Shown here piece by piece: positions 4,333 to 35,097 of a stretch of 64,000 nt of DNA (positions are counted from its first letter, which is position 1; the number at the start of each line of letters is the position of its first letter). The translations under genes and the position numbers were made by a program. The DNA is from Deltaproteobacteria bacterium (GTDB lineage: Bacteria > Desulfobacterota > Binatia > UBA12015), in the NCBI GenBank assembly GCA_016874795.1, contig VGTG01000001.1, positions 22,735-86,734 on the forward strand, given 5' to 3'. The notes beneath the pieces are model-generated. The model was not told the DNA's origin. It ran no database searches and saw nothing but the letters and a program-made list of their open reading frames with translations.

Positions 4333-5556
4333 ATGGAGAGCGTATCGCTGGAAGGGATCGACCTCCTCGGCCTCGAGAGCCATCGCGACGGCCCGCCGCA
4401 CGCGGCGTTCGCGCGGCTCCGCCGCGAGGACCCGGTCCACTGGCATCCCGAGGAGGGCGGCTCCGGCTTCTGGGCCGTGACGCGCTACCATGACGTCGTC
4501 CGCGTCTCGCGCGACTCCGAGACGTTCTCGTCGGAGCGCGGCGGCACGATGGCCTGGGACGCGGACGAGGCCCAGCTCATCGGCCTCCGGCAGATGATGC
4601 TCAACATGGACCCGCCGCGGCACAGCAAGCTGCGCGCGATCGTGAACAAGGGCTTCACGCCGCGCCGCGTCGCCGAGCTTCGCGGGAGGATCGGAGCGCT
4701 CTCTCGGGCGATCGTCGACGAGGCGCTCGCGAAGGAGGCGTTCGACTTCGTCGAGGACGTCGCCGGCGAGCTGCCGTCCTACGTCATCGCAGAGCTGATG
4801 GGCATCCCGCTCGACGACGGACGCGAGCTCTACCGCCTGACGGAGCGCATGCACACCACCGACCGGAGCGAAGCCGGGCGCATGGACGGCGCGCTCGCGA
4901 TCGGCGAGATGATGAACTACTCGCGCCGCGTGCAGGCCGAGCGCCGCGCGAAGCCGGGCGACGACATCGTGAGCGCGCTCCTCGCCGCGGAGGTCGACGG
5001 CGAAAAGCTCTCCGAGTTCGAGCTCGACATGTTCTTCATGCTGCTGATCAACGCCGGCGGCGACACGACGCGAAATCTCGTCGGCGGCGGGATGGAGGCG
5101 CTCTTCGAGCATCCCGAGGAGCGCGCGCGCTTGCAGAGGGACCTCGGCCTCCTCGATTCGGCGGTCGAGGAGATGCTCCGCTGGGTGACGCCCGTGATCC
5201 ACTTCCGCCGCACGGCGACGCGCGACGCGACCCTCGGCGAGCGCCAGATCCGCGCGGGCGACAAGGTCGTCGTCTTCTACACGTCCGCGAACCGGGACGA
5301 GGAGATCTTCCCCGAGCCGGATCGTTTCGACGTCGGCCGCACGCCGAACGAGCACGTCGCCTTCGGCGGCGGCGGAACCCACTATTGCCTCGGCGCGAAC
5401 CTCGCGCGGCTCGAGGGGCGGACGATGCTCGGTGAAGTGCTTCGACGCATGCCGGATCTCGTGCGCACCGGACCGATCGAGCGCCTCCACTCGAACTTCA
5501 TCCACGGGCCGCGGCGGATGCCGGTGTCCGTCCGCCCGCGCGCGGGCGCGACGTGA
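4333..5556 (+). CDS. Cytochrome P450 monooxygenase
   Basis: Heme-thiolate loop FGGGGTHYCLGANLA, ExxR (EEMLRW) and the I-helix NAGGDTT. Confidence 0.92.
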   Translation: MESVSLEGIDLLGLESHRDGPPHAAFARLRREDPVHWHPEEGGSGFWAVTRYHDVVRVSRDSETFSSERGGTMAWDADEAQLIGLRQMMLNMDPPRHSKLRAIVNKGFTPRRVAELRGRIGALSRAIVDEALAKEAFDFVEDVAGELPSYVIAELMGIPLDDGRELYRLTERMHTTDRSEAGRMDGALAIGEMMNYSRRVQAERRAKPGDDIVSALLAAEVDGEKLSEFELDMFFMLLINAGGDTTRNLVGGGMEALFEHPEERARLQRDLGLLDSAVEEMLRWVTPVIHFRRTATRDATLGERQIRAGDKVVVFYTSANRDEEIFPEPDRFDVGRTPNEHVAFGGGGTHYCLGANLARLEGRTMLGEVLRRMPDLVRTGPIERLHSNFIHGPRRMPVSVRPRAGAT

Positions 5557-6017
5557 GCGAAGCGAAGCACCTCCTGATCGTCTTCCATTCGCAGGGCGGT
5601 GGAACGGAGACGATGGCGGAGGCGGCGCGACGCGGCGCCTCGCAGGAGGAAGGCGTCGAGGTCCGCATGCTGCGCGCGCTCGAAGCGGGGCTCGACGACC
5701 TCCTCTGGGCGGGAGCCGTGATCTTCGGGACGCCCGAGAACTTCGGCTACATGTCGGGCGCGCTGAAGGACTTCTTCGACCGCACGTTCTACCCGGCGCA
5801 GGGAAAGGTGAACCAGCTCCCGTACGCCGTCTTCATCAAGGCGGGCAACGACGGCGGCGGCGCGCTGATGAACATCGAGCGCATCGCGAAGGGCTATCCG
5901 CTGCGCAAGGTCGCGGAGCCGATCGTGGCGAAAGGCGCTGTGACGGACGAGGTCCTCGCGCAGTGCGAGGAGCTCGGGCAAACCCTCGCCGCAGGCCTCG
6001 CTCTCGGGATTTTCTGA
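5553..6017 (+). CDS. Flavodoxin-like fold / FMN-dependent NAD(P)H oxidoreductase family protein, likely P450 redox partner
   Basis: N-terminal LLIVFHSQGGGTETMAE flavodoxin-like phosphate loop and GTPENFGYMSGALKDFFD. The GTG start overlaps the P450 stop (GTGA at 5553-5556). Confidence 0.75.
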   Translation: MSEAKHLLIVFHSQGGGTETMAEAARRGASQEEGVEVRMLRALEAGLDDLLWAGAVIFGTPENFGYMSGALKDFFDRTFYPAQGKVNQLPYAVFIKAGNDGGGALMNIERIAKGYPLRKVAEPIVAKGAVTDEVLAQCEELGQTLAAGLALGIF

Positions 6018-6024
6018 GCTCTCG

Positions 6025-7011
6025 TCAGCGCGCGAGGAAGTCGCGGATCGCGCGCGTCGTGTCGGCGGGGCGCTCGAGGACGAAGAAGTGCCCCGCATCG
6101 AGGAAGGCAACCGTGCCGTCGGGCATCGTGCCCTCGATTCCCTCGTAGAACTCGCGCGGCTGACGCGGGTCGTGCTCCCCCTGCAGCACGAGGACCGGAA
6201 ATCGCCAGCTCGAGATCAGGCGCGTGCGGCGATCGATCCACTCCTTCCGGAACGAAGACGACTGGTAGTAGCGCGCGACCGCAGCCCCGACGCCGGGATG
6301 GCTGAACTCGCGCACGGTGCGCATGAGATCGCTCGTCGCGACCAGATGACGGCAGAGCTCCGTGTACGCCGCCGCGACGAGCAGCGCCGGCAAGCGGAGG
6401 ATCTGCCCGCGGATCGGGTCGAGGAAGATCGCTTCCTGCGGCGCGAGCGCCGGATGGAAGTGGTAGAGATGCTGCTGCCCGCGCACGTAGCGACGGATGC
6501 GCGCGGGATGGCTCGCACCAACCCAGTCGCCGAGCACGGAGCCGCGGTCGTGCGTGACGAGGTTCACGCGGTCGAGGCCGAGGACGTCGAACAAAGCGAC
6601 GAGCTGCTCCGCGACGCCCTCGTGACGGTAGTCGCCCGGCGTCTTCTGGCTTTGCCCGTAGCCCTTCAGATCGATCGCGACGACGCGGTGATCCCGCGAC
6701 AGGTCCTCGATCTGCCGGTGCCAGCAAAACCACGAGTCCGGCAGGCCGTGCAGGAAGACGATCGGCTCGCCATGGCCCGCCTCGACGAAGTGCCAGCGGA
6801 TGCGGTCGCCGTCTCCCGGCGCCTCGACGAAGCGATGGATCGCGCGCACCTCGCCGAGCATCTCGACGTCGCCGTCCTCGTTGGGCGAGGGACGTCCTGC
6901 CGCGAGGAGCGACAGCGCACGCCGCGTGGTCGCGACAAGGACGCGCGGCGACATGCGATCCGCGTGTCGCAAGCGCTCCGGAACCTCCGTGTATCGAAGG
7001 GCGTGCGCCAT
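6025..7011 (-). CDS. Alpha/beta-fold hydrolase (epoxide hydrolase / haloalkane dehalogenase-like), last gene of the ebo operon
   Basis: IVFLHGLPDSWFCWHRQ oxyanion-region motif and nucleophile elbow THDRGS. The start lies 3 nt after the eboC stop. Confidence 0.85.
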   Translation of the reverse strand: MAHALRYTEVPERLRHADRMSPRVLVATTRRALSLLAAGRPSPNEDGDVEMLGEVRAIHRFVEAPGDGDRIRWHFVEAGHGEPIVFLHGLPDSWFCWHRQIEDLSRDHRVVAIDLKGYGQSQKTPGDYRHEGVAEQLVALFDVLGLDRVNLVTHDRGSVLGDWVGASHPARIRRYVRGQQHLYHFHPALAPQEAIFLDPIRGQILRLPALLVAAAYTELCRHLVATSDLMRTVREFSHPGVGAAVARYYQSSSFRKEWIDRRTRLISSWRFPVLVLQGEHDPRQPREFYEGIEGTMPDGTVAFLDAGHFFVLERPADTTRAIRDFLAR

Positions 7012-7014
7012 GCG

Positions 7015-7743
7015 TCAGTCTCCGCGAACGTAGCGCTGTCCGAAGCGAGTGAGGAGCATCGCCGCAGCTCCGACCGGGAGCCAGACCGTAGAGACGAGAA
7101 GCGCCAGGATCGCGCCGTCGAGGAGCGCCATTCCCGCGATCATCCAGGGAATCACCGGCCAAGAATAGCGACGACCGCGCTGATTCTCGTGTCGTGCAAC
7201 GACCGTGACGAGAAGCGTCCAGACGAGCTGCGCGATCCCGGCCAGCCACACGAGGCCCGGGACGGTGCCCGCGATCGCGACGGCGGTGACGACGTAGACG
7301 AGCGTCCGCGTCGCGGCCATCAGGAGAACCGTCCATGCCGCGGCCTTGTGCCAGCGGTCGTAGGCCCAGATCACCGCCAGCAGCACGAGGCCCGCGATCA
7401 CCGCGCTCGGATGCGGCGTGAAGAGCAGCAGCGACACACCCGCACCGAGGAGCACGACAGCGAGACGTATCGCCGCTGCCGCCGTGATCCGCCCCGCGGG
7501 GATCGGACGGAACGGCTGCTCGCGGGCGTCCCACTCGCGGTCGCAGAAGTCGTTCAGCACCATACCGCCGCAATACGAAGCGGAGAGCGCGACCATCAGC
7601 AGCAGCACGACGCCCGGCGCGAGAGCCGCGCCGGGCGAGCCGCTCGCGCCGGTGAGAAGCGCCGCCGCCAAGACGTTCATCCACACCGTCGGGAGGTTGC
7701 TGACGCGCGAGATCGCGAGCAGCGTCTTCGTGTCGACGGCCAT
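7015..7743 (-). CDS. eboC: UbiA-family prenyltransferase (EboC-like)
   Basis: Polytopic membrane protein with the NDFCDREWD (NDxxDxxxD) motif, located within the ebo gene set. Confidence 0.8.
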   Translation of the reverse strand: MAVDTKTLLAISRVSNLPTVWMNVLAAALLTGASGSPGAALAPGVVLLLMVALSASYCGGMVLNDFCDREWDAREQPFRPIPAGRITAAAAIRLAVVLLGAGVSLLLFTPHPSAVIAGLVLLAVIWAYDRWHKAAAWTVLLMAATRTLVYVVTAVAIAGTVPGLVWLAGIAQLVWTLLVTVVARHENQRGRRYSWPVIPWMIAGMALLDGAILALLVSTVWLPVGAAAMLLTRFGQRYVRGD

Positions 7744-7764
7744 GGCTCCGTCTCCGTCTTCGTC

Positions 7765-9129
7765 TCAGTCGCGGAAGAGGTGGTCGAGGATGCGATCGCG
7801 CACGTCCACCGCGCGGATCGACGAGGAATCGACGAAGCGCGGCTCGGAAGAAGCGAACACGGGGGTCTCCGGATCCGCGGTCGCGAGGCCGTGCGAGCCT
7901 TTCACGAGCGTCGCGTCGAGCGGCGTCAGCTCCATCGTGTAGCGAAAGCCGAGCGTCTTCCGTGCGAGCGTCAAGCCGGCGCGGACGTACGGCAGCGCGA
8001 GAGCCGGGTCGACGTAGAGCTCGCACGGATCGAAGCCGGGCTTCCGGTGGATCTCGACCATCCGCGCGTAGTCGGGCGCGCGCGCGTCGTCGAGCCAGAA
8101 GTAGTACGTGAACCAGCTGTCGGGCTCGGCGAGAAGCACGATCTCGCCGGACCGCTCGTGGTCGAGGCCGTGCGCGCGCTTCCCCGCGTCGTCGAGGATC
8201 TGCCCGATGCCCGGCACGCCGGTGAAGAGCTCCTTCACCGCGGCGACGTCCGCAGGATCGCCCACGTAGACGTGCGCGATCTGATGATCGGAGACGGCGA
8301 AGGCGCGGCTCGTCCCGGGATCGAGGTACTCGCGGCCGAGGTCGACCTTCACCCGGAGAAGGCCCGCCTCGCGCAGCAGCCGATTCGGGTGCACGGGCCG
8401 GCGTACCGGCACGATGCCGTACTCCGACAGCACGACGACGCGGAGCCCGCGCTCGCGGAAGTGGTCGATCAGCCGCCCCGCGACGGCGTCGATCTCGCCT
8501 AGATCGCGCGAAAGATCGGCTTCCGGACCCTCGCGCTGCAGGCAGTAGTCGAGGTGCGGCAGGTACACGAGCTGCAGCGTCGGCCGAAAGCGCTCCTCGA
8601 CGGCGATCGTCGCGTTCGCGATCCACTCCGAGGAGACGATCGAGGTGTTCGGCCCCCAGAAGTGGAACAGCGGGAACGTGCCGAGCTGCTTCGTCAGGTC
8701 GTCTCGCAGCTCGAGCGGGTACGTGTAGCAGTCCGGCAGCTTCAGCCCGTCCGCGCAGTAGAGAGGACGCGGCGTCAGGGACACGTCCGCGCGGGTCGCC
8801 ATCGCGTACCACCAGAAGGTGTTCGAGGAGGTGAACGACGGATCCCGCTTGCGTGCGACGTCCCAAACCTTGTCGCCCTGCACGAGGCGGTTGCTCTGCC
8901 GCCAGAGCCAGATCTCGCTCAGGTCGCGGAAGTACCAGCCGTTGGCGACGATGCCATGACCGGAGGGCGGCAGGCCCGTCGTATACGTGCTCTGGACGGT
9001 GCACGTGACGGCCGGCAGCACCGGTCCGATCGTCGCGACCTCCTTCGCGAACGCGGCGAGCCGCGGCGTGTGCGCTCCGAGCAGCCGGCGCGTCAGGCCG
9101 ACGACATCAAGGACGACCGTGCGATGCAT
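7765..9129 (-). CDS. eboF: Alkaline-phosphatase superfamily nucleotide pyrophosphatase/phosphodiesterase (EboF-like)
   Basis: LDVVGLT..LPAVTCTVQSTYTTGLPPSGHGIVANGWY metal/nucleophile region typical of type I phosphodiesterase/NPP. It overlaps the eboE 3' end by 23 nt. Confidence 0.8.
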   Translation of the reverse strand: MHRTVVLDVVGLTRRLLGAHTPRLAAFAKEVATIGPVLPAVTCTVQSTYTTGLPPSGHGIVANGWYFRDLSEIWLWRQSNRLVQGDKVWDVARKRDPSFTSSNTFWWYAMATRADVSLTPRPLYCADGLKLPDCYTYPLELRDDLTKQLGTFPLFHFWGPNTSIVSSEWIANATIAVEERFRPTLQLVYLPHLDYCLQREGPEADLSRDLGEIDAVAGRLIDHFRERGLRVVVLSEYGIVPVRRPVHPNRLLREAGLLRVKVDLGREYLDPGTSRAFAVSDHQIAHVYVGDPADVAAVKELFTGVPGIGQILDDAGKRAHGLDHERSGEIVLLAEPDSWFTYYFWLDDARAPDYARMVEIHRKPGFDPCELYVDPALALPYVRAGLTLARKTLGFRYTMELTPLDATLVKGSHGLATADPETPVFASSEPRFVDSSSIRAVDVRDRILDHLFRD

Positions 9130-10240
9130 CGATCCTCTGCCTGGCCCAGCGAAGCTCGCGCACGATCGAATCGCCGACCGAGCTCATGCGCAGATCCTCG
9201 GGGAGCACGTCGAAGGAGTAGGTCTCGACCTCGAGCGGAATCGCCGGATCGAGCCTCGGCAGGACGTCCTCGAGAAAGAAGCGCGTCGTCCCGCACGGAC
9301 CGAGGTGCTCCGCGAAGATCGGCACGTGGAAGTGTACTCGGCACTCCTCGATCGAAGAGCGCGTGGAGGCGTCGCGGCCGCGACCGTTCCCGCCGAAGAA
9401 CTCCGGCAGGTCGGCGGCGCGGTGCAGCGCTCCGTCCACGTCGCGCGCGACGACCTGATGCAGGTACGTGGGCTCGTCGAACTGGAGCAACCTCTCGATC
9501 TCCTCTCCGTGCGCGTGCAAGGCGGACGAGACCTGCACCTTGCCGATGACGATGCCGGCGGCCTGGATGGTGCGGAGGCTCTCCGCCGGATCCTCGAACT
9601 CGACCGCCTGGTGGCAGCAGTCGAAGCAGAGCCCGGCGCGCGACGCGAGCGCCGGCGGAAGGGCCAGGCGGTCGAAGAGCTCCACCGCCTGCTCCGTCGT
9701 CTCGACGACGCACGCCGACTCGGGCTCGAAGGCGAGGACGATCGACCGCCCGTGTCGCTGCGCGAGATCGTCGAGATGCTCGACCGCCGCGCGGACGTTC
9801 GCGCGGACGTGCGGCCAGTCGTCCTCTGCGAAGCCGTTCGTGAACGCGATCGGCGCCGTCGAGATCGAGCCGGGAACGCCCTCGGGCAACCACTCGACGA
9901 GTCGGTCGGCGATCCCCCTCGTATAGGCGACGCGCTCCTTGCTTCGCCAGTCGGGCTCGTAGACGCGCTCCTTGACGGACGTTCCGTGAAAGCGACCGTA
10001 GGGGAAGCCGTTGACGGTGAGGACGTAGAGATCGTTCACCTCGCACCACTCGCGGAAGCGTCGCGACTCCTCGTCCGTCAGCTCGTCGACCGCCTGAGCG
10101 GAAAGACGCAGGCCGATCGGAAACGCCTCCGTCGGCGAAACGCCGGCCTTGACGGCGATCAGGTGCGACTCGAGATTCGCGCGCACGTCCGCCCAGGACT
10201 CGCCCGGATGGATGTTCGTGCAATACGTCAGACGCCGCAC
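9107..10240 (-). CDS. eboE: TIM-barrel sugar-phosphate isomerase/epimerase-like 'metabolite traffic protein' EboE
   Basis: Characteristic N-terminus (M)RRLTYCTNIHPGESW and a xylose-isomerase-like barrel length. GTG start at 10240. Confidence 0.8.
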   Translation of the reverse strand: MRRLTYCTNIHPGESWADVRANLESHLIAVKAGVSPTEAFPIGLRLSAQAVDELTDEESRRFREWCEVNDLYVLTVNGFPYGRFHGTSVKERVYEPDWRSKERVAYTRGIADRLVEWLPEGVPGSISTAPIAFTNGFAEDDWPHVRANVRAAVEHLDDLAQRHGRSIVLAFEPESACVVETTEQAVELFDRLALPPALASRAGLCFDCCHQAVEFEDPAESLRTIQAAGIVIGKVQVSSALHAHGEEIERLLQFDEPTYLHQVVARDVDGALHRAADLPEFFGGNGRGRDASTRSSIEECRVHFHVPIFAEHLGPCGTTRFFLEDVLPRLDPAIPLEVETYSFDVLPEDLRMSSVGDSIVRELRWARQRIDASHGRP

Positions 10241-10256
10241 CCGCCGAGCCTACCGA

Positions 10257-10348
10257 GGGGGTCCGGTTCGTTGCAACGCATCTGCACCCAGGCTCACCAG
10301 GCTCGGGACGAGCCTGGGTGCAGATATGCGGAAACGAACCGGACCCCC
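10257..10348. repeat. 92-nt near-perfect inverted repeat (39-nt arms) in the eboD-eboE gap
   Basis: The left arm 10257-10295 pairs with the right arm 10310-10348 as 16 bp plus 15 bp perfect, around an 8-nt internal bubble. The loop is 14 nt and contains a direct repeat of CCAGGCTC. Confidence 0.8.
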
Positions 10349-10625
10349 AGAGGCGTCTTCGAATCCTTCGGCGAGGACGCGCGCCCGCTCCTCGGCGTGC
10401 GCGTACGCGGTCATGGCGATCGAGCTCGCGCGCCATCGTCTGGTTGGCCTCGATGATGTCGTTCAGCTCGTCGGCGATGCGTCCGCCGAGGCCGGTCCAA
10501 TCGCCCGGGCAGCGCCACGCTTCGGAGGCGGGATCTGGGCGGAACGGACGACGATCGCGTAGCGGTATCCGAGGCGTCCGTAGCGCATCGGCTCACCCTC
10601 GTATGGGTCCTCCGAGCGATAGCGT

Positions 10626-11771
10626 CTAATGAGGTCGGGACGCGTGATTGCGAAGATCCGCCACGCAGGAGCGCATCGTGCCAACGTCGATTTCACGAAC
10701 GTCGACACCGTGGCCGATGCGATCGATCAGCGTCACGCAGAGGTTGCCGCCGAGGTGCGCTCGAAAGTCCTCGAGCGCCTGCTCGACGTCGAGATGCTCG
10801 AAGACGGGGAGTGCTACGTCGAAGCCGAGATCGTCCAGCGTCTCGAAGATCGCGTGCCGTGCTTCGTCGGCGATGAGTCCCTTGCGGTTCGCGTAGAGAG
10901 AGTCGAGCGCGATGCCCGCGGCGACGGCTTCGCCGTGGCGCAGCTCGTATCCCGAGAGCTCCTCGAGCTTGTGCGCCGCCCAGTGGCCGAAGTCGAGGGG
11001 ACGGGCCGAGCCGAGCTCGAACGGATCGCCGCTCGTGCGGATGTGCTCGAGGTGGAGCTCGGCGCAGCGAACGACCATCTCCTCGGTCGCTTCGGGCTCG
11101 AACCGCGCGAGGCGCTCTCGGTTCTCGTGCAGCCAGCAAAAGAGCTTCGCGTCGCGGATGAGCGCGACCTTCACGGCCTCCGCGACGCCGGAGCGGCGGT
11201 CGCGCGCGCTCAGCGTCTCGAGGAAGTCGAGGTCGTTCAGGACGGCAAACGGCGGCACGAACGTTCCGAGAAAGTTCTTCCGCTGCTGGAAGTTGACCGC
11301 GTTCTTGACGCCGATCCCGGCGTCGTTCTGCGCGAGGACGGTCGTCGGAACGCGGAGGAGCCGCACGCCGCGGTGGACGAGCGCGGCAGCGTAGCCGGCC
11401 GCATCGAGGACGGACCCGCCGCCGATCGCGAGCACGAACGAGTGCCGACAGACGCCGTGCTGCGCGAGCAGACGGTGCAGCTCGTCGACGATCGACGGAT
11501 CCGACTTGGACGCCTCGCCTCCGGGGACGACGTGCGGCTCGGCGACGATCTCGAGCGACGGGTGCGCCCCGGCGTACGCCGTGATGCGCGCGGCGAGATC
11601 CGGCCAGGCGCGGAGGACGTTCTCGTCGACGACGACGACGGCGCGATGCGGTCCCTCGCCGGCGCGCGCGAGGACGTCCGCGAGCGTCGCGTTCTCCGGC
11701 GCGAAGACGGCGCGCGTGAAGATCACCGGGTAGCGGAACGAGACCGCGAACTCCTGCTCGATCTCACGCAC
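10626..11771 (-). CDS. eboD: 3-dehydroquinate-synthase-like sugar-phosphate cyclase (EboD-like)
   Basis: Motifs GGGSVLDAAGY, RVPTTVLAQNDAGIGVKNAVN and HGEAVAAGIA. I chose the GTG at 11771 (GGGAG 5-6 nt upstream), which overlaps the upstream gene stop by 8 nt; an alternative GTG lies at 11786. The N-terminal 200 aa of track ORF 10626..12407 is spurious. Confidence 0.82.
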   Translation of the reverse strand: MREIEQEFAVSFRYPVIFTRAVFAPENATLADVLARAGEGPHRAVVVVDENVLRAWPDLAARITAYAGAHPSLEIVAEPHVVPGGEASKSDPSIVDELHRLLAQHGVCRHSFVLAIGGGSVLDAAGYAAALVHRGVRLLRVPTTVLAQNDAGIGVKNAVNFQQRKNFLGTFVPPFAVLNDLDFLETLSARDRRSGVAEAVKVALIRDAKLFCWLHENRERLARFEPEATEEMVVRCAELHLEHIRTSGDPFELGSARPLDFGHWAAHKLEELSGYELRHGEAVAAGIALDSLYANRKGLIADEARHAIFETLDDLGFDVALPVFEHLDVEQALEDFRAHLGGNLCVTLIDRIGHGVDVREIDVGTMRSCVADLRNHASRPH

Positions 11772-13359
11772 GGCGGTCTCCCGCACCGGCGCGCGACGTC
11801 TCGGGGAGGACGAGCTTGTCGATGAAGCCCGTGAGCGGCACGGTTCCTTCCGGCCCCGGGATCGGCCGGCCGGGCGTGCCCATGCCCTGCGCGATGAAGA
11901 GCTCGCGGCCGCGCAGCGCGAGGTTCGTCGGCCCGTCGAGACCTTCCGCCAGGACGACGACCTCGCCCGTGTCGGGATCGATCGAGAGCAATCGGCCGGA
12001 GAAGCGGCGGAAGCCGCCGTGGCTCGGCTCGCTCCACAGCGCGGCGCGGTCGCGGATCGGATCTGCGAAGTCGCTGCAGAACTCGAGCACGTAGAGGCGG
12101 CCGTCGGGGCCGATCTCGAGATCGGTCGGCGCGGTGAGCCCCGTGACGAGCCAACGCATCTCGCCGGAGTCCGGATCGACGCGGACGACGCCGCCGGCGC
12201 GCGGCTCGAGCTCCGTGCCCTCTCCGCCTTCTTCGCCTTCCGTCGAGCCGGAGAAAAGCGTGACGAGAACGTCTCCGGAGCGCGGATCGTGTCGCAGGTA
12301 TCCGGGGACGGCGTCCTGCCCGCGCGGGAGCGGCGGCAGCTTGACGATGCGCCGCGAGCCGCGCTCGGGCTGGAGCTGCACGACCTCGTCGCTCGAGCTC
12401 GAGACACCGAGCCAGATCCCGCGCTTCGGGTCGAACGCGACGTCGTTGATGTTGCCGTACACCCGGCTCCACTCGCGCACCTTCCCGCCGTCGACGCGGT
12501 AGATCGTCGAAGGGCCTCCGAAGTACGCGAGGCTGACGAGCGTCGTTCCGTCGCCCTCGGCCATGCCGGCCATGCCGAAGACCTCGTCGCGGCGGACGAT
12601 GTCGACGATGTTCTTGGACTCCCGTCCGTTCAGGAGCTCGCGGCGCTCGCCCGGTCCGTCGAACCGGCCGTCGCCGTTCTCGTCTTCGAGGCGGAGGAGA
12701 GCGCCCGTCGCGGGCTTCGCGGGATCCCCCGTCCCCGCGACGGAGACGAGGAGCGCGTCGCCGGCGCGCGCGAGCATGCCGCGCGGATTCTCGAGGTGGT
12801 CCGCGACGCGGACGCGGGGAACGAGCTGCTTCGCCGGCGCGAGGGGCACCGCGACGGCGTCCGCGCCCACGACCGGGCCCGATGCGCCACTCGGCCGGGC
12901 GGTCCGCGCCGTCTGCGCCGTCTGCGCCGTCTGCGCCGCGCATCCACCGGCGAAGAGAAGGACCACGCAGAGAACGAGAGGCGCCGTCCGTGCGGCGAAG
13001 GGGCGCGCCGACCGGCGCGCGCAGCCGACCGCCGCGACCACCGCCATCCACAGGCCGCAGATCGCGAGCCCGAGCGACTCGCGCACCTCCTCGATGTCGA
13101 GCGACGCCATCCCGAACGAGGAGAACGCCGACGCGGCCGCACCACCCGCGTTCCCCGGGGTCTCCCGCCACGCGAAGAAGAGGTAGAGCGCGCCCGCGAT
13201 CGCGCTCGCGCGCGGGAAGTAGCGTCCCCGTCCCGACGCGAACGCCGACGCCGCGGCGATGCCGTACGCGAGGATCCAGATCGCGGGATCCGGATCGTTC
13301 GTCTGCACGACGACCGCGAAGGCGAAGAGGACGAAGGCGATCCAGGAAGCCAGGCGCAT
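11764..13359 (-). CDS. Fusion protein: N-terminal TMEM220-family 4-TM domain + fossil lipoprotein signal (TM5) + periplasmic beta-propeller-like domain (531 aa)
   Basis: Starts MRLASWIAFVLFAFAVVVQTNDPDPAIW, which carries the TMEM220 signature VQxNDPD. Positive-inside loops are RGRYFPR and RRSARPFAAR, and there is an internal lipobox-like LLFAGGC. The C-terminal roughly 390 aa has repeated G-x-hydrophobic strand motifs (GPDGRLYVLE, GPTNLALRGRELFIA). The upstream part of track ORF 11764..13923 is antisense to eboB. Confidence 0.72.
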   Translation of the reverse strand: MRLASWIAFVLFAFAVVVQTNDPDPAIWILAYGIAAASAFASGRGRYFPRASAIAGALYLFFAWRETPGNAGGAAASAFSSFGMASLDIEEVRESLGLAICGLWMAVVAAVGCARRSARPFAARTAPLVLCVVLLFAGGCAAQTAQTAQTARTARPSGASGPVVGADAVAVPLAPAKQLVPRVRVADHLENPRGMLARAGDALLVSVAGTGDPAKPATGALLRLEDENGDGRFDGPGERRELLNGRESKNIVDIVRRDEVFGMAGMAEGDGTTLVSLAYFGGPSTIYRVDGGKVREWSRVYGNINDVAFDPKRGIWLGVSSSSDEVVQLQPERGSRRIVKLPPLPRGQDAVPGYLRHDPRSGDVLVTLFSGSTEGEEGGEGTELEPRAGGVVRVDPDSGEMRWLVTGLTAPTDLEIGPDGRLYVLEFCSDFADPIRDRAALWSEPSHGGFRRFSGRLLSIDPDTGEVVVLAEGLDGPTNLALRGRELFIAQGMGTPGRPIPGPEGTVPLTGFIDKLVLPETSRAGAGDRRA

Positions 13360-13385
13360 CGATGAACGAGAGAAGCGCGTCCGTC

Positions 13386-14282
13386 CTAGTTCGGGACGGG
13401 CTGGTCGACGCGCGGCTCCTGGCCGCGCAGGACGGAGTTGTCGTTCCAGAGGCTTCGCTGATCGATCACGGGCGAGCGCGCGAGCGCTTCGAAGTCGATC
13501 TGGCCGGACTGGCCGTACGCGTCGAGAGCGTTCTTCCAGGTCGTCAGCTCGACGACGGCGGGAGCCACCCCGCGCTCGAGCATGCGCTGCGCCGTGCGCG
13601 GCACCGCGAGTGGATCGCTGACGCCCCAGTCCGCGGAGCTGTCGACGAGGAGGCGCTCGCCGCCGTAGCGCAACACGATCTCGACCATGCGCTCCGTTCC
13701 CATCTTGGTGTGCGGATAGATGCTGAACGCGGCCCACGCACCGCTCGCGAGGACGTCGTCGATCGTCTCCTCGTTGTTGTGATCGATGATCAGCTTCGAC
13801 ATCGGGATACGCATCTCCTCGGCGATCGCGAGGGAGCGGCGGATTCCGGTCTTCTTGTCGCGATGCGGGGAGTGCACCATCACGACCATGTCGTTCTCGC
13901 GCGCGACCTCGAGCTGCGCGCAATAGGCCTGCTCCTCCGCGGCGGTGATCTCGTCGAAGCCGATCTCGCCGATCGCGACGACGCCTTCCTTGAACGCGAA
14001 GCGCGGCAGGAGCTCGAGCACCTCGCGCGCGAGCGGCTCGTTGTTCGCCTCCTTCGCGTTGAGCCCGATCGCGCAGTAGTGCGCGATGCCGAACTGCGCG
14101 GCGCGGAAGCGCTCCCAGCCGACGAGGCTCGAGAAGTAGTCGACGAAGCTGCCGGCGCTCGTGCGCGGCTGGCCGAGCCAGAAGGCCGGCTCGATGACGG
14201 CGCGGATGCCGGCGCGCGCCATCGCCTCGTAGTCGTCGGTGGTGCGGCTCGTCATGTGGATGTGCGGATCGAAGAAGCGCAT
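13386..14282 (-). CDS. eboB: TatD-family metal-dependent hydrolase (EboB-like)
   Basis: MRFFDPHIHM metal-binding His pair, MVHSPH, and amidohydrolase-fold length. Confidence 0.85.
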   Translation of the reverse strand: MRFFDPHIHMTSRTTDDYEAMARAGIRAVIEPAFWLGQPRTSAGSFVDYFSSLVGWERFRAAQFGIAHYCAIGLNAKEANNEPLAREVLELLPRFAFKEGVVAIGEIGFDEITAAEEQAYCAQLEVARENDMVVMVHSPHRDKKTGIRRSLAIAEEMRIPMSKLIIDHNNEETIDDVLASGAWAAFSIYPHTKMGTERMVEIVLRYGGERLLVDSSADWGVSDPLAVPRTAQRMLERGVAPAVVELTTWKNALDAYGQSGQIDFEALARSPVIDQRSLWNDNSVLRGQEPRVDQPVPN

Positions 14283-14283
14283 C

Positions 14284-15180
14284 TCAGCTCCCTTCGGCGG
14301 CGAGCGCCGCGAAGGCCGTCTGATCGCACCGTCCCGCGCGCGCGTCCGCGAGAGAGCGAAGAGCGTCGGGGTCCGTCTCTTTTTCCGCGAGGTCGCGGAG
14401 GCGATCGGTCGCGCCCGCGCGCGCGAGTGCGAGAACGGCGGCGCGACGCGCGCGCGGATCCGGCACGCCGAGCTCGTGCTCGAGCGCGGCGAGCCCGCGA
14501 TCGCCGGCGTGCACGCCGAGGCAGAGCCAGAGCTCGTGCGGGATCGGCCGACCTGCGCTGCGCCGCTCGTCCGCGAGGTCGAGCGCCATTCGCGCCATCT
14601 CCGGCGAAAGGCGACGATCGAGCCCGTACACGCGCCAGAGCGGCGCCTCGATGAAGACCGCCTTGATCACGAGCTGGCGCCACGCGACTTCGTCGAAGAA
14701 ATGCGCCGGATACGGCGTGTCGCACGCCGTCGCTTCGAAGACGGTCTTGAGGTTCGTCCGGCAGCCTTCCCCGGCGCGCCACGCGAAGCGCTCGCCCCCG
14801 GGCAGATGGGCGAGCGCGCGGTAGAGAGCCTGCAGCTCGCCCTGGTCGGCGTAGCGGAAGCACTCCTCGAGAGCTTCGGGGAACGCGTCGCCGGCGGGGT
14901 CGGGATGCGCGACGAGGAGACGCACGCGCAGCGCTTCGAGGGTCGTCCAGCGCTCCGGATTCCAGCCCGGCAGCCCGTCGGCCGCCTGCTGCTTCTCCTC
15001 CGCCGTCGGCTCGAGGAGGCCGCGAGGCGCATGGCGGCTCGCCTGCGAGAGGAGGCTCGCGAGACGCATCGCGGACGCGCCGGCATCGATCTCACGGTCG
15101 CTCCGCCGGAGCCATTCGAGCGCTTCCGGACGGAGGCGGCGCTCGAGCATCTCGTCGAAACGTGTCTTCGTCGGAGTCAT
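14284..15180 (-). CDS. eboA: EboA-position protein (helical, C-terminal HEAT-like repeats)
   Basis: First gene of the cluster, ending 1 nt before the eboB start. ATG at 15180 (MTPTKTRFDEMLERRL). It has no enzymatic motif; the call rests on position and general resemblance to EboA. Confidence 0.6.
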   Translation of the reverse strand: MTPTKTRFDEMLERRLRPEALEWLRRSDREIDAGASAMRLASLLSQASRHAPRGLLEPTAEEKQQAADGLPGWNPERWTTLEALRVRLLVAHPDPAGDAFPEALEECFRYADQGELQALYRALAHLPGGERFAWRAGEGCRTNLKTVFEATACDTPYPAHFFDEVAWRQLVIKAVFIEAPLWRVYGLDRRLSPEMARMALDLADERRSAGRPIPHELWLCLGVHAGDRGLAALEHELGVPDPRARRAAVLALARAGATDRLRDLAEKETDPDALRSLADARAGRCDQTAFAALAAEGS

Positions 15181-15319: not shown

Positions 15320-15703
15320 ATGACGATGAAGATCCGTCCCGACGAGCCGATCGAAGAGTTCGCCCGGCGGTTCCGGGCGGAGCACGCAGAGGCGCCGCTC
15401 GGCCCGGTCGCGAACAAGGTCCTGGTCGACAACGACCGCGTGCGGATCTGGGAGCTGAGCCTCGAGCCGGGCGAGGCGTCGAGCCTGCATCGCCACGATC
15501 TCGACTACATGGTGATCCTGCTCGACGGCGACCGCATCGCCGGCATCCCCGGACCGGCCTCGACGCGCGGCGGGCGTGCCGCCGACGTGGTCCCGGGCCG
15601 CGTCGCCTATCTGAAGCGCGGCGACACCGAGTGGGCCGTGAACATCGGCGACAAGCCGTACCGCGAGCTCCTGATCGAGCTGAAGGACTCGTCGTCGACT
15701 TGA
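15320..15703 (+). CDS. Cupin-domain protein (127 aa)
   Basis: Single cupin barrel signature (LEPGEASSLHRHDLDYMVILLDG ... GDTEWAVN). ATG at 15320 with AAAGGA upstream. Transcribed divergently from eboA. Confidence 0.7.
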   Translation: MTMKIRPDEPIEEFARRFRAEHAEAPLGPVANKVLVDNDRVRIWELSLEPGEASSLHRHDLDYMVILLDGDRIAGIPGPASTRGGRAADVVPGRVAYLKRGDTEWAVNIGDKPYRELLIELKDSSST

Positions 15704-16470
15704 CGCCTGCGCAGCGACAGGGCTGGGAGCGCGACGGCTTCTTCATCGTCGAGAGCTTCGCGCCCGCGTCGACGCTCGAAGCGATGACGGAGCGCATCGT
15801 CGCGCTGGCGCGCGCGGCGGAGCGCGGCGAGGACGTGAGCCCCGCGATCGTGCTTCCGGAGCCCGCGCTCGCGAGCCTCGAAGCGCCGGCCGAGAAGAAG
15901 CTCTCGAAGCTCTTCCGCGTCCATCGACAGGAGCCGGTGTTCCGCGAGTTCTGCGCAGCACCGGCGACGCTCGACCTCGTCACGCCGATCCTCGGCGAGG
16001 AGGTCGACTGCTTCCTCTCGCAGTTCATCTTCAAGCATCCCGGCGCGCTCGGTCAGCCGTGGCACCAGGACGGCTGGTACTTCCCGTTCGATCGCGGGCC
16101 GCAGGTCGGGCTCTGGCTCGCGGTAACGGAAGCGCGGCTCGACAACGGACCGCTCTGGGTGCTGCCCGGATCGCACCTCGAGCCGGTGCACGAGGTCGTT
16201 CCCGACCGGCGGCCGAACGCGCAATTCAGCTACGTCGAGATCGTCGACCACGACATGGAGCGCGCCGTCCCCGTGCGGATGGAGCCGGGCGACCTCCTCG
16301 TCTTCCACAGCCACCTGATGCACCGCTCGACGGACAACCAGAGCGACCGCGGCCGCGCGGCGATGGTGTTCCACTACGGCGAGGCGGGAACGGTCGATCG
16401 GAGCGAGGAGAAGTTCGGCTTCGTGCCGCCGAACGTCGACTGGATGCCGGTGCGCCGGCGCGCGGCCTGA
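15700..16470 (+). CDS. Phytanoyl-CoA dioxygenase (PhyH) family Fe(II)/2OG oxygenase
   Basis: GWERDGFFIVE, WHQDGWYF (HxD), and HSHLMHRS. The proposed TTG start at 15700 overlaps the cupin stop (TTGA). The upstream part of track ORF 14239..16470 is antisense to eboA. Confidence 0.82.
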   Translation: MTPAQRQGWERDGFFIVESFAPASTLEAMTERIVALARAAERGEDVSPAIVLPEPALASLEAPAEKKLSKLFRVHRQEPVFREFCAAPATLDLVTPILGEEVDCFLSQFIFKHPGALGQPWHQDGWYFPFDRGPQVGLWLAVTEARLDNGPLWVLPGSHLEPVHEVVPDRRPNAQFSYVEIVDHDMERAVPVRMEPGDLLVFHSHLMHRSTDNQSDRGRAAMVFHYGEAGTVDRSEEKFGFVPPNVDWMPVRRRAA

Positions 16471-16485
16471 CGCGCCCCTCCGCCT

Positions 16486-16654
16486 CTCAGAGTCTGTGAA
16501 TCAATCCCCTCCCGTCGCCGGAAGGCCGATGCATCCCTGCCTGCTGCGTTGCTCCTCCTGGGCATAGCCTACGGCTATGACTCGTCGTCGCGCCTTGCAG
16601 GCGGGGCGCCTCGACCTTCCGGCTCGGTCCGGGGATCGATTCACAAACTCTCAG
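16486..16654. repeat. 169-bp multi-segment inverted-repeat element between convergent genes (MITE-like, structured RNA or bidirectional terminator)
   Basis: Terminal 24-nt inverted repeats 16486-16509 and 16631-16654 match at 21/24. Inner pairings are GCCGGAAGG (16517-25) with CCTTCCGGC (16615-23), CCCTGCCTGC (16535-44) with GCAGGCGGGG (16597-606), and an apical CATAGCC/GGCTATG hairpin. Confidence 0.7.
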
Positions 16655-17070
16655 CGGAGCACGGCGCCCGCGATCGCGAGGAGCAGCGACGCGATCGAGA
16701 TCGTGTTCAGCATCGCGGAGGCGCGGTGCAGCCGGTCGAACCGCGGATCTTCGGCGTCGAGCCCCTCGTAGCGCGGCAGCAGCACCTCCCCTCCGACGAG
16801 CGAAGCGACCACGGCGACCGCGACCGGAACGGCGAGTCGCGCGAGCTCGGCTTCGGCCAGGCCCTCGCGCCCGAGCAGCAACGCCGCGAGCGCGACGAAG
16901 CCGAGAGCCGTGCCGACGCGATACGTCCGCCGGAACATCGGACGGAGGAAGCGCCGCGCGTCCGCCGACGGAAACGAGCCGTGTGCGACCGGCGTCACGA
17001 CGAAGGAGAGGCAGAGGAGGCTCCCGAACCAGGCGGCGACCGCGAGCGTGAAGATCAGCCGAAGCGGCAT
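16651..17070 (-). CDS. DUF4149/TMEM205-like 4-TM membrane protein (139 aa)
   Basis: ATG at 17070. MPLRLIFTLAVAAWFGSLLCLSFVVTPVAH is typical of DUF4149, and there are four hydrophobic segments. Confidence 0.6.
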   Translation of the reverse strand: MPLRLIFTLAVAAWFGSLLCLSFVVTPVAHGSFPSADARRFLRPMFRRTYRVGTALGFVALAALLLGREGLAEAELARLAVPVAVAVVASLVGGEVLLPRYEGLDAEDPRFDRLHRASAMLNTISIASLLLAIAGAVLR

Positions 17071-17133
17071 TTCGGCTTCGATACCGCGATGCCATCCGAT
17101 AGGGAAATCCCGGGGACCGGAAGGTCGCCTTCG

Positions 17134-17850
17134 ATGAGACGCACGCGAAGCACGACGAGAAGAGACGCGGCCGACACCGCGGCACTGGCGGCGGCGCTCG
17201 ACGAGCGCGGTCACGCACGTCTTCCGGGCCTCCTCGACGCGAGCGCATGCGAGCGTCTCATCGCGCTCTACGCGGAGCGCGAACGCTTCCGGAGCTTCAT
17301 CGACATGCGGCGGCATCGCTTCGGCGAAGGCGACTACCGCTACTTCGCGCATCCGCTTCCGCCGATCGTGCAACAGCTTCGCGAGCGGCTCTACGCGGCG
17401 CTGGCACCGATCGCGAACGCGTGGGAGGAGCGGCTCGAAACGGGGCGCTCGTTCCCGCCGCGTCTCGAGAGCTTCCTCGCCGTCTGCCGACGAAGCCGCC
17501 AGAAGCGGCCGACGCCGCTCCTCCTCCACTACGAGGCAGGCGGCTACAACTGCCTGCACCAGGACCTCTACGGGCCGGTCTACTTCCCGCTGCAGGTCGC
17601 GTGTCTTCTCTCGCGACCCGGCCGCGACTTCGAGGGCGGCGAGGTGCTGCTCGTCGAGCAGCGGCCGCGAAGCCAGTCGCGCGGCGAGGCGATCGTGCTG
17701 GAGCGGGGCGAAGGGCTCGTCTTTCCGTGCCGCGAGCGGCCGATCGAAGGTGCGCGCGGCGCGTACCGGGCGCGCGTGCGCCACGGCGTGAGCACGCTTC
17801 GGTCGGGCGAGCGCTTCACGCTCGGCATCATCTTCCACGACGCCGAGTGA
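17134..17850 (+). CDS. 2OG-Fe(II) oxygenase (prolyl-hydroxylase-like) family protein
   Basis: LHQDLYG (HxD), a distal His/Arg region (RVRHGVSTLRSGERFTLGIIFHDA), and ATG at 17134 with GGAAGG 9 nt upstream. Confidence 0.78.
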   Translation: MRRTRSTTRRDAADTAALAAALDERGHARLPGLLDASACERLIALYAERERFRSFIDMRRHRFGEGDYRYFAHPLPPIVQQLRERLYAALAPIANAWEERLETGRSFPPRLESFLAVCRRSRQKRPTPLLLHYEAGGYNCLHQDLYGPVYFPLQVACLLSRPGRDFEGGEVLLVEQRPRSQSRGEAIVLERGEGLVFPCRERPIEGARGAYRARVRHGVSTLRSGERFTLGIIFHDAE

Positions 17851-18138
17851 GCGAGTCTTCGCGGCTACGACGACGCTGCGACGGCTACGCGGCCGCGGCG
17901 CCCGCGCGTCCGGCGAAGCCGGGAAGACCGTGCGCGGCACCCGAGCGTGCGAGCACGATCGCGGCATGAAGCGCCTTCGCGAACGAAGCTTCGCCGCGGC
18001 GATCTCCTCCTCCGCCAACTTCGCGACCCTCGGCAGGTTACGGGTTTCAGATCACCGTTTTGTTCCCACCTCGTTACCGGATCGTGAAAGAAATCCGCGA
18101 CTTTTTCGAGGACCGCCGCGCCGCGGCCCTGAAGCGTC

Positions 18139-19329: not shown

Positions 19330-19360
19330 GGTGTGCTCCTCGCGGGCGGGGGTACGGTGT

Positions 19361-19412
19361 CGTTCGACCGATTGAATCAAACGCTTGATTCCCCGACAAG
19401 TCGATCGGAACG
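19361..19412. promoter_or_regulatory. Imperfect palindrome upstream of P450 #2 (putative operator)
   Basis: The core GAATCAA-acgc-TTGATTC (19374-19391) is nested in an outer CGTTCGACCGATT / (A)ATCGATCGGAACG symmetry. It lies 45-62 nt upstream of the P450 start and is AT-rich for this genome. Confidence 0.3.
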
Positions 19413-34900: not shown

Positions 34901-35097
34901 GGGCGACGGGCGCGGGGGCCGTTTCGCGGCAGATCATGGGAACCGCTGTGATGAGCGGAATGCTGACCGCGTCCCTGATCGCGATCTTCATCATCCCGCT
35001 GTCGTTCTACGTCGTCGAGCGGCTCGCCGGCACGGAGCACGGGCCGGCGGATCTGCCTGCCGGCTCGCCGGCGGCAAGCCCGGAAGGATCGCACTGA
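31933..35097 (+). CDS. RND (HAE1, AcrB/MexB-like) multidrug efflux permease
   Basis: 1054 aa, MSAFFVRRPIVAMVIAIIM..., 12-TM/2 large loop architecture. Confidence 0.97.
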   Translation: MSAFFVRRPIVAMVIAIIMTIVGAVSMVQLPIAQFPDIAPPEVQLSATYTGADALTIEQSVATPIEQQMSGVTDSIYMYSINANNGTMTLRVDFDVGTNINTDQILTQMRYGQAASQLPMDVQQYGVTIKQSTTAPLALFSVFSPKGTYDALFLTNYAQININDPMTRVPGIGQVSIFGAGQYAMRMWVRPDNLAKLGITVSEILDAIKQQNTVNPAGQVGGEPVPPGQEFTYTVRAQGRLQSVEDFENVVIRANADGSMIKVKDVARVELGAQLYTSKGRLNGKPAAIIAIYQLAGSNAIDTMEQARALMEKAKERFPEDLDYVVSLDTTKAVTAGIEEIVKTLFEALLLVIIVVFIFLQGFRTTLIPLLAVPVSLVGTFMLFPLLGFSINTLSLFGLVLAIGIVVDDAIVVVEAVEHNMEQGLSPRDATLKAMSEVSAPVIAIALILVAVFVPTAFIPGITGRLYQQFAVTIAVSVVFSAFNALTLSPALAALLLRPKKEMRGVLGAFFRWFNKWFGKATDGYVNWCHHLIKRPALGLLGLAGLAVAAVWLGSKLPTGFVPDEDQGYFYMNVQLPDAASLQRTDEVCKRIEKLLEKTPGVQTFNTVVGFSLLSSTNTTYSGFYFVTLKPWDERDPEGLTADVIMARLNAQLHEMPDAVAFAFPPPAIPGVGTSGGVTFMLGDHSGGTVEFLAENTAKFIAAANKRPEFAQIFTTFVPNVPQIYAHVDREKVLKQGVDLSSVYKTLQAFMGGVFINYFNRFGRVWQVYVQAEGEYRTNTRAMGQFYVKNKEGGMVPLDAIVETSSIYGPEFTIRFNKHRSAQINASLKPGYSSSRGMKALEEVFAETMPPEMGYDYMGMSYQEQVAAQGVSPMVIFGFSLLMVFLILAAQYESWTLPFSVLLGIPIAVFGAFFGLFVREMVNNVYAQIGLVMLIGLTAKNAILIVEFAKDEYEKGKPLIDATLYAAKLRLRPILMTAFAFILGVVPLVRATGAGAVSRQIMGTAVMSGMLTASLIAIFIIPLSFYVVERLAGTEHGPADLPAGSPAASPEGSH

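Follow-up and report, generated by a model that had tools for sequence, protein, structure and literature searches.

The ebo genes occur in thousands of genomes and have been linked with the export of scytonemin, with nematode repellence and, latterly, with the production of thallusin. Here, we describe an ebo cluster on the minus strand of a 64,000-nucleotide (nt) stretch of the Deltaproteobacteria bacterium assembly GCA_016874795.1 (contig VGTG01000001.1, positions 22,735 to 86,734), referred to throughout as the window. The cluster is made up of eight genes: the six members of the ebo set, a gene that we call X, which encodes a TMEM220 membrane domain fused to a beta-propeller, and hyd, which encodes an alpha/beta hydrolase (Table 1). 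Our results indicate that the cluster is the proteobacterial A-B-D-E-F-C ebo gene set in a Myxococcota-type version and that, across several proteobacterial and myxobacterial lineages, genes of the TMEM220 family repeatedly lie right next to ebo genes, an association that was previously unremarked. In other respects the cluster is ordinary, gene order and hydrolase included, and what merits pursuit is the TMEM220-ebo link rather than the order of the genes.

Table 1. Genes, domains and intergenic features of the ebo cluster in window coordinates (aa, amino acids)
Feature	Position	Strand	Remarks
eboA	14284..15180	(-)	298 aa; proteobacterial type; C-terminal extension of ~75 aa
eboB, TatD-like metal-dependent hydrolase	13386..14282	(-)	298 aa; Pfam TatD_DNase 47.9 bits
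X, fusion of TMEM220, lipobox helix and putatively periplasmic beta-propeller	11764..13359	(-)	531 aa
TMEM220 four-helix membrane domain of X, aa 1-118	13006..13359	(-)	alignment and model
Fifth helix of X with lipobox-like AGGC (Cys140)	12901..12984	(-)	alignment and model
Six- or seven-bladed beta-propeller of X, aa 182-517	11809..12816	(-)	AlphaFold2 model
eboD, dehydroquinate synthase (DHQS)-like sugar-phosphate cyclase distinct from AroB	10626..11771	(-)	GTG start at 11771
Non-coding D/E spacer	10241..10625	(-)	385 nt; frame plot without coding signal
Long hairpin in the D/E spacer	10257..10348	(-)	39-nt arms, 14-nt loop
eboE, TIM-barrel protein	9107..10240	(-)	377 aa; NCBIfam TIM_EboE equivalog; GTG start
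eboF, alkaline-phosphatase/phosphodiesterase-type enzyme	7765..9129	(-)	454 aa; Pfam Phosphodiest (PF01663) 189.6 bits
Short UbiA-like prenyltransferase in the eboC position	7015..7743	(-)	242 aa; Pfam UbiA 74.2 bits
hyd, epoxide-hydrolase-like alpha/beta hydrolase	6025..7011	(-)	328 aa; Pfam Abhydrolase_1 84.2 bits

A proteobacterial-type ebo gene set

A first-pass annotation of the window had described eight co-directional minus-strand genes with operon-type junctions. Its coordinates are correct and the four junctions that it quoted are exact. By these coordinates, adjacent genes are separated by 1 nt (A/B), 26 nt (B/X), 385 nt (D/E), 21 nt (F/C) and 3 nt (C/hyd) or overlap by 8 nt (X/D) and 23 nt (E/F). 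The junctions delimit two probable transcription units, eboA-eboB-X-eboD and eboE-eboF-eboC-hyd, with the hairpin-bearing spacer between them. Because the guanine plus cytosine (G+C) content of the window is ~70%, long spurious open reading frames (ORFs) are common. In the eight minus-strand ORFs, the G+C fraction is 0.78-0.94 at third codon positions and 0.43-0.59 at second positions; for X and eboD, these values were calculated on the longer ORFs from stop to stop. For eboD, the GTG start is backed by the N-termini of homologues, which read MR(E/T)IEQSFSV, and the motifs singled out at first, NDFCDREWD in the UbiA gene and RRLTYCTNIHPGESW in EboE, are both found in the window products.

We compared the ebo products with curated family models. 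EboE scores 412.6 bits on the NCBIfam equivalog TIM_EboE (NF035939; cut-off 250), and EboA scores 148 bits on EboA_domain (cut-off 50) and 185 bits on EboA_family, below the cut-off of 320. EboB and EboF have general Pfam matches (Table 1) and are both clustered with other ebo genes. EboD scores 550 bits on NF004852 (PRK06203; cut-off 333) and 215 bits on the aroB model TIGR01357, below its cut-off of 305. The UbiA protein in the C position scores 94 bits on the EboC model (prenyl_rel_EboC, NF035940), below the cut-off of 250 and nearly equal to its score on the SCO3242_trans prenyltransferase family (92.8 bits). The annotation had assigned the products to all six ebo families and had named EboA, EboC and EboE models as a check. 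At curated cut-offs this assignment holds for EboE, the EboA domain and EboD and falls short for the EboC model and EboA_family.

Both shortfalls extend to related loci. Among six other loci tested, the EboC model is passed only by a canonical A-B-C-D-E-F cluster from a Rhodothermales metagenome-assembled genome (MAG; L095) with 384 bits, and this cluster is also the sole tested locus to pass EboA_family (322 bits). The C proteins of Cupriavidus (L021), a Pedobacter MAG (L043) and the D-E-C-type loci L015, L067 and L083 score 74-111 bits on the EboC model, and EboA from the A-B-D-E-F-C cluster of Cupriavidus reaches 174 bits on EboA_family. Since these failures occur in every proteobacterial and myxobacterial ebo locus tested, they reflect the scope of the models and not the absence of the genes. 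All six window proteins are collinear with the A-B-D-E-F-C loci of Burkholderiaceae and Cellvibrionaceae, with identities of 48-85%. EboB is 73-85% and EboF 61-77% identical to the B and F genes of A-B-D-E-F-C loci, and the eboA product is 56-69% identical to the A genes of L001, L002, L017 and L021-L025. EboB, EboD, EboE and EboF are well conserved.

The UbiA protein is 48-67% identical to the C genes of at least 20 A-B-D-E-F-C loci over ~97% of its length. With the canonical EboC of L095 it aligns over 65 residues only, around the first Asp-rich motif, and a ~58-residue block of the long UbiA forms is missing from the window protein. The NDxxDxxxD motif is kept (N64, D65, D68 and D72), as are Y128, K133, E186 and D209. 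Truncation or frameshift of the gene was rejected as an explanation because the short length is conserved among relatives: 233-250 aa in L001, L017, Cupriavidus, Ralstonia, Gilvimarinus and a Pedobacter MAG. Judged by these alignments, the window UbiA is a member of a conserved short clade.

The EboD result has a bearing on annotation. NF004852 is an equivalog that carries the NCBI name '3-dehydroquinate synthase', and it is passed by the EboD proteins of L021, L083 and L095, all of which fail AroB. The D genes of A-B-C-D-E-F, A-B-D-E-F-C and D-E-C loci thus display the same pattern as the window eboD, and NF004852 is in practice the EboD family. As every EboD tested passes this model, automatic annotation will misname EboD as AroB.

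Gene order was compared across 80 genome loci that came from a pattern scan for EboE, which recovered at least 576 relatives in genomes, and that were mapped with the window proteins. About 17 of the 80 have the plain A-B-D-E-F-C order with a short UbiA and neither X nor hyd; they belong to Burkholderiaceae (Cupriavidus, Paraburkholderia, Trinickia and Ralstonia), Cellvibrionaceae (Cellvibrio, Marinimicrobium and Gilvimarinus) and a gammaproteobacterial MAG. In Polyangiaceae, Kofleriaceae, Hyphomicrobiales and others, D-E-C faces F-B-A or variants of it. The nearest relatives of the window locus, from Myxococcota-type assemblies, are L001 (on an 8.1-Mb contig), L002 and L017 ('Deltaproteobacteria bacterium OFTM293'), and all three have the order A-B-X-D-E-F-C.

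The first-pass annotation had interpreted the locus as a newly rearranged cluster with a variant pathway, in which eboC had shifted to the 3' side, leaving its slot to a propeller gene. Set against A-B-C-D-E-F, it is true that C follows F and that a new gene separates B from D. However, plain A-B-D-E-F-C is common in Proteobacteria and was published in 2016 alongside FABDEC and DECABF as one of the usual ebo orders outside Bacteroidetes and Cyanobacteria (Yurchenko 2016, PMC5133447), and the window C gene is orthologous, at the 48-67% identity given above, to the C genes that end those clusters. We consider a new rearrangement highly improbable. Because A-B-D-E-F-C exists without the inserted gene, X represents an insertion between B and D that is independent of the position of C. 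The synteny comparison proposed at the time bears out a recurrent order that includes X, in L001, L002 and L017, and shows that the terminal position of C is not new.

Two other arrangements were encountered in the same sample. About 22 of the 80 loci, mostly from Desulfobacterota-type MAGs and Solidesulfovibrio (for example L033, L037-L041, L044-L057 and L064), have an eboD-eboE pair alone within 10 kilobases (kb), which suggests a separate two-gene cyclitol module. In L020, L034, L035, L036, L042 and L049, a second, divergent TatD-like gene (40-46% identical to eboB) lies directly upstream of eboE, giving the order D-B'-E-F-C.

The spacer between eboD and eboE is a further peculiarity of the window. 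The arms of its hairpin are 87% complementary, the hairpin ends 17 nt upstream of the eboE GTG, and the predicted fold of the spacer RNA has a z-score of -3.7. The D-E gap is ~10-20 nt in L001, L002 and L017 and ~70-150 nt in plain A-B-D-E-F-C loci. We found no spacer homologue in 176 fetched loci, no Rfam match, no sigma-70 or terminator consensus above shuffled expectation and no second occurrence of the hairpin core 14-mer in the window. Derivation of the spacer, as a relic, from the second TatD-like gene found between D and E elsewhere was rejected, as neither blastx nor blastn revealed any similarity.

The TMEM220-propeller fusion and TMEM220 genes beside ebo loci

X matches the Pfam family TMEM220 (PF15071) with 63.2 bits (threshold 27), aa 11-108 aligning with profile positions 1-98 of 100. 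Residues Q19, N21-D22-P23-D24, W28, Y32, E90, E94 and G97 are invariant in the TMEM220 alignment. An AlphaFold2 model of X (predicted local distance difference test score, pLDDT, 87.8) contains the four helices of this domain (aa 2-19, 26-43, 49-66 and 85-118), a fifth helix at aa 126-153 and then a propeller of ~28 strands. Loop charges assign the N-terminus and the RGR and RRSAR loops to the cytoplasm, and the NDPD and EEVRE (EExRE) loops and the propeller to the periplasm. Based on this charge distribution and on the lipoprotein origin of the propeller, we infer that the invariant TMEM220 loops and the propeller sit at the periplasmic face of the inner membrane.

The origin of the propeller can be read from its homologues. 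A homology search with X returned a few fusions of ~500 aa and many proteins of ~400 aa that lack TMEM220 and are 54-63% identical to X, some of them named Polyangiales or Myxococcales by source. In the alignment, the N-terminus of the unfused homologues is a hydrophobic segment closed by a nearly invariant Cys, a lipoprotein signal; the fusions have this helix and this Cys (C140) placed after the TMEM220 domain. By this alignment, the fifth helix is the former lipoprotein signal peptide of the propeller. A neighbour-joining tree of the propellers does not distinguish one origin of the fusion from several, monophyly of all fusions being recovered in 0 of 100 bootstraps and that of the ebo-linked set in 12 of 100. 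The lipobox-like AGGC and the hydrophobic helix are conserved, yet internal in X, where they come after four helices. This arrangement raises the speculative possibility that X is cleaved by signal peptidase II into a membrane protein and a lipoprotein. The codon for Cys140 is at 12940-12942.

The resemblance of the propeller to ScyD/ScyE is borderline only. It scores 69.1 bits on the NCBIfam ScyD/ScyE family NF033206 (ScyE_fam), below the cut-off of 80, and the match is restricted to aa 362-496 of X, corresponding to profile positions 217-324 of 333. The same model matches each of the 35 aligned homologues, with a best E-value of 1.4e-26. In the PDB, Foldseek places 2p4o (TM 0.70), an SMP-30/gluconolactonase/LRE-like protein, first, ahead of YncE, PON1, strictosidine synthase and PknD. 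Searching PDB sequences with a profile of X gave weak propeller-blade matches only, with E-values of 0.008 or worse. These neighbours leave room for two views of the propeller. YncE, the PknD sensor domain and TolB are not enzymes, and no catalytic motif is assignable, as would be expected if the propeller were a binding or sensing domain and X acted in self-protection, as a receptor or as an anchor for the secreted product. However, equally many neighbours are enzymes (PON1, SMP-30-like lactonases, strictosidine synthase and virginiamycin B lyase), and an invariant acidic or amide residue occurs about once per blade (N191, D258/E259, N303/N305, D324/E325, D349, D413 and N479) in a manner that may resemble the metal sites found centrally in those enzymes. 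X also has no output domain. We think a non-enzymatic propeller unlikely.

X recurs with ebo genes in two architectures. In L001, L002 and L017, the B-X-D position is likewise occupied by homologues, which are 60-64% identical to it. L015/L016 have another arrangement, X-A-B-F facing C-E-D, which begins with a 55% identical fusion that overlaps eboA by 4 nt. The TMEM220 domain by itself is more widely associated. Among small ORFs of the ebo-anchored loci, a hidden Markov model (HMM) built from the TMEM220 part of X identified standalone TMEM220 genes directly beside ebo genes in eight genome loci (L019, L020, L061, L077, L078, L084, L091 and L094). All eight pass PF15071 (48-71 bits against a cut-off of 27) and share an invariant Q-x-NDPD...W...Y and E-x-x-(R)E-x-x-G, and the HMM found no TMEM220 match in the ebo-anchored loci other than beside ebo genes. 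The lineages with an ebo-adjacent TMEM220 include Hyphomicrobiales, Rhodospirillales, a Betaproteobacteria MAG and delta-type MAGs. In L019, a 124-aa standalone TMEM220 gene comes after eboB. Downstream of it, at 5425-6258 on the minus strand of that locus, is a gene for a secreted-looking protein with a PEP-CTERM-like tail, the kind of sorting signal also carried by ScyE and ScyF of the scytonemin cluster.

The association was then examined in reverse, by a metagenome scan anchored on TMEM220 with a six-sequence alignment as query. Of the 80 loci recovered, 59 contain ebo genes. The nearest ebo gene lies at most 400 nt from TMEM220 in 53 of these 59 (median 187 nt); it is a divergent eboD in 44 loci and a same-strand eboF in 12. 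Adjacency persists down to 30-40% identity. Ebo genes are lacking in the other 21 loci, of which 13 are short contigs and eight are long. In a library of 1.84 billion representatives, the TMEM220 domain of X has 596 relatives at E <=0.001, and the best 150 of these are nearly all standalone proteins of 115-150 aa, which makes the fusion rare. Within the searchable literature we found no paper that names TMEM220 together with ebo or a prenyltransferase, and we know of no function for any member of the TMEM220 family.

A candidate periplasmic step in an ebo pathway

The statement in the first-pass annotation that the small-molecule product of ebo is still undefined is outdated. A preprint from May 2026 ties ebo to thallusin, an algal morphogen, and to saccharoquinoline (10.64898/2026.05.21.724671). 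In the core route, EboD converts mannose 6-phosphate to a cyclitol, which together with aspartate gives a hydroxyquinaldic-acid-type scaffold; a membrane UbiA enzyme then farnesylates the scaffold, leading to saccharoquinoline and thallusin-type meroterpenoids (10.64898/2026.05.21.724671; PMC12904256). The function given for EboD rests on work that PMC12904256 cites. EboC farnesylates hydroxyquinaldates, deletion of eboB, eboC, eboE or eboF abolishes thallusin, and the oxidative rearrangement and cyclisation steps have no assigned enzyme (10.64898/2026.05.21.724671). Ebo gene orders are phylum-specific, with Myxococcota among the phyla that have the core genes, and thallusin is made by a Pseudomonadota strain whose ebo gene order differs; the preprint makes no mention of membrane, periplasmic or export accessory components (10.64898/2026.05.21.724671). 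All four genes of the thallusin core set, eboB, eboC, eboE and eboF, occur in the window, C scoring below the cut-off of the EboC model.

We envision a scenario, which we judge to be reasonably probable, in which the cluster is an A-B-D-E-F-C ebo set with X handling the prenylated product in the periplasm and hyd serving as a tailoring enzyme. The UbiA step would yield a prenylated, and therefore membrane-anchored, ebo product. X, which is predicted from its sequence to act at the periplasmic face, could handle this product after the UbiA step, at the outer face of the inner membrane: its TMEM220 part may bind the product or hand it over, and its propeller may modify or release it. Candidate activities at this point include binding, cyclisation, hydrolysis, lyase chemistry and release. 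By analogy, a periplasmic role of X would fit the precedent of ScyE in Nostoc and of the extra, signal-peptide-bearing ORFs of the EDB cluster. Hyd, with its putative Asp nucleophile, would be a lineage-specific tailoring enzyme of the cytoplasm.

The closest solved relatives of hyd are epoxide hydrolases (5xm6 and human soluble epoxide hydrolase, sEH). In an alignment that covers aa 59-207 only, its HGLP aligns with HGFP and its HDRGS with the Asp-nucleophile HDWGA of 5xm6, in agreement with the HGxP and sm-x-D-x-sm motifs. No convincing export signal was found in the protein. The gene adjoins C in L002, lies 2.6 kb off in L017, with a SulP-carbonic anhydrase gene between eboC and the hydrolase, and is absent from L001 and all other loci. 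This loose, lineage-limited linkage makes hyd at most a local tailoring enzyme. Family matches confirm both additions to the ebo set recognized at first sight, the TMEM220/propeller gene and the epoxide-hydrolase-like alpha/beta hydrolase, but their description as two extra dedicated components suits X well, its TMEM220 part especially, and the lineage-specific and loosely linked hydrolase poorly.

Several observations weigh against a pathway role for X. Fusions ~51% identical to it (L011-L014) lie outside ebo clusters, between amidase and DUF3604 genes, and within ebo clusters the only fusions encountered come from a small set of related assemblies. All of the unfused propellers that we looked up lie in unrelated neighbourhoods, with a conserved setting of acyl-CoA dehydrogenases, an outer-membrane barrel, TetR and rpoZ; these paralogues are ordinary Myxococcota lipoproteins outside ebo loci. 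With unfused propellers and some fusions outside ebo, the propeller alone is not an ebo marker. An enzymatic function cannot be read from either domain: by Foldseek the propeller resembles generic six-bladed folds only, at 12-16% identity, and the TMEM220-domain model yields nothing below E = 3 in the PDB and thus no structural relative. As to the TMEM220 link itself, TMEM220 is missing within 10 kb in the ~17 plain A-B-D-E-F-C loci and in most genome loci of the D-E-C type, and the absence of TMEM220 from many ebo loci means that it is not essential to the pathway in general. The eight long metagenome loci without ebo genes (six with 4 kb or more on each side of TMEM220 and two with that length on one side) are mostly low-GC, and no common neighbour was found among them. 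Finally, the query was drawn from ebo-linked TMEM220 genes and the sample is therefore biased, so that the 74% of metagenome loci with ebo genes is an upper estimate.

Taken at their strongest, these points would make X and the hydrolase passengers, inserted in one lineage and kept by descent without a role in the pathway. The loci with X in ebo are closely related (their ebo proteins are 59-85% identical), the paralogues closest to the propeller, like some of the TMEM220-propeller fusions, are found outside ebo clusters, the hydrolase is missing in L001 and separated from eboC in L017, and uncharacterised or unrelated genes are sometimes inserted in ebo operons, a feature left unanalysed where it was described (Yurchenko 2016, PMC5133447). 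However, TMEM220 adjoins ebo in distant lineages and in 59 of the 80 TMEM220-anchored metagenome loci, X accompanies ebo in a second, rearranged architecture with its own overlap onto eboA, and in the window X overlaps eboD. Passenger status for both genes is in our view quite doubtful; for the hydrolase alone it is plausible.

A different question is what the cluster makes. The failure of the UbiA gene and of eboA on the canonical NCBIfam models also counts against the scenario proposed above, and means that the product may differ from thallusin. The short UbiA, the divergent EboA, X and hyd could divert the cyclitol-derived scaffold to a different prenylated end product, a possibility that we take seriously although we hold it at less than an even chance. 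It would account for the score of the UbiA protein on the EboC model (94 bits against 384 for the canonical form), its 65-residue alignment and its missing block of ~58 residues, for an EboA below the family model, for an epoxide-hydrolase-like enzyme translationally adjacent to C and for an oxygenase-rich neighbourhood (PhyH, a 2OG oxygenase and two P450s). Against this, thallusin has been reported from a Pseudomonadota strain with a different ebo order and Myxococcota are listed among the phyla with the core genes (10.64898/2026.05.21.724671), the catalytic residues of the UbiA fold are kept, and EboB, EboD, EboE and EboF are the well-conserved members of the set.

Oxygenases are frequent among the genes that flank the cluster. 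Upstream (15320-19380) and divergent from it are a cupin-like ORF, a PhyH dioxygenase, a DUF4149 gene, a 2OG 'Oxygenase-NA' gene and a P450; downstream (4333-6017, plus strand) and convergent are a P450 and a flavodoxin-like FMN reductase. The P450, DUF4149, Oxygenase-NA and flavodoxin-like genes recur near the ebo clusters of L001 and L002. The thallusin pathway is still without an assigned oxidative step. Among the window ORFs scanned, up to ~54 kb, there are no ScyA/B/C-type scytonemin genes. The earlier remark that the host has no scytonemin genes in the window therefore stands over that range, with the nuance that the propeller is the best, sub-threshold ScyD/ScyE match. Farther from the cluster, two stretches of the window (31933-35097 and 46313-49807) have a lower G+C (~0.66). 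One holds an AcrB-type RND pump; the other, on the minus strand, holds genes for a DegT-type aminotransferase, a GFO/IDH/MocA oxidoreductase and a sulfotransferase and looks like a sugar-modification module.

Returning to the scenario in which X handles the prenylated product, the recurrence of TMEM220 beside ebo raises a broader and riskier idea, which we put forward as improbable but worth pursuing. TMEM220 proteins, small and facing the periplasm from the membrane, could be a missing late-stage component of ebo in many Proteobacteria and Myxococcota, either as a catalyst, for example of a terpene-cyclising or rearranging step, or as a flippase or hand-over protein for a farnesylated intermediate, with ScyE-like propellers of the periplasm as natural partners. 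No proteins have been assigned to terpene cyclisation, oxidative rearrangement or export, the late steps of the pathway, and TMEM220 provides a concrete candidate that can be tested in strains already making the product. If the idea were true, two competing views of ebo, biosynthesis of a metabolite and transfer to the periplasm, would be joined, and the TMEM220 family (PF15071), which includes a human protein of unknown function, would gain its first functional context.

Relation to known ebo systems

Compared with the A-B-D-E-F-C loci of Yurchenko 2016 (PMC5133447), the window has the same six families in the same order and orientation and adds X between B and D, hyd after C and the 385-nt hairpin spacer between D and E. 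With the thallusin gene set (10.64898/2026.05.21.724671) it shares eboB, eboC, eboE and eboF, plus eboD and eboA. It differs from that set in that its UbiA and EboA are of a divergent proteobacterial type and its host is of the Myxococcota type.

Two systems pair ebo genes with components that carry export signals. In Nostoc punctiforme (Klicki 2018, PMC6282210), as in the window, ebo is paired with a beta-propeller, periplasmic in Nostoc and predicted to be so here, and the ScyD/ScyE family model of NCBIfam has its best match in the propeller of X. The window protein matches below the cut-off and over the last third of the model only, and it occurs without scyA, scyB and scyC; its propeller is tethered by TMEM220, whereas Nostoc ScyE has a cleaved Sec signal and a PEP-CTERM tail. 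The EDB cluster of Pseudomonas fluorescens NZI7 (Burlinson 2013) consists, according to PMC12904256, of six ebo homologues and three unknown genes. It resembles the window in that ebo homologues are accompanied by extra genes, some of them with export signals, as PMC12904256 and PMC6282210 describe it; the loci fetched here included none from Pseudomonas.

The remaining comparison is with the TMEM220 family (PF15071) itself. Residues 1-118 of X share with it the four-helix layout and the Q-x-NDPD and E-x-x-RE motifs. Nearly all members of the family are standalone proteins, whereas the domain of X is fused to a propeller.

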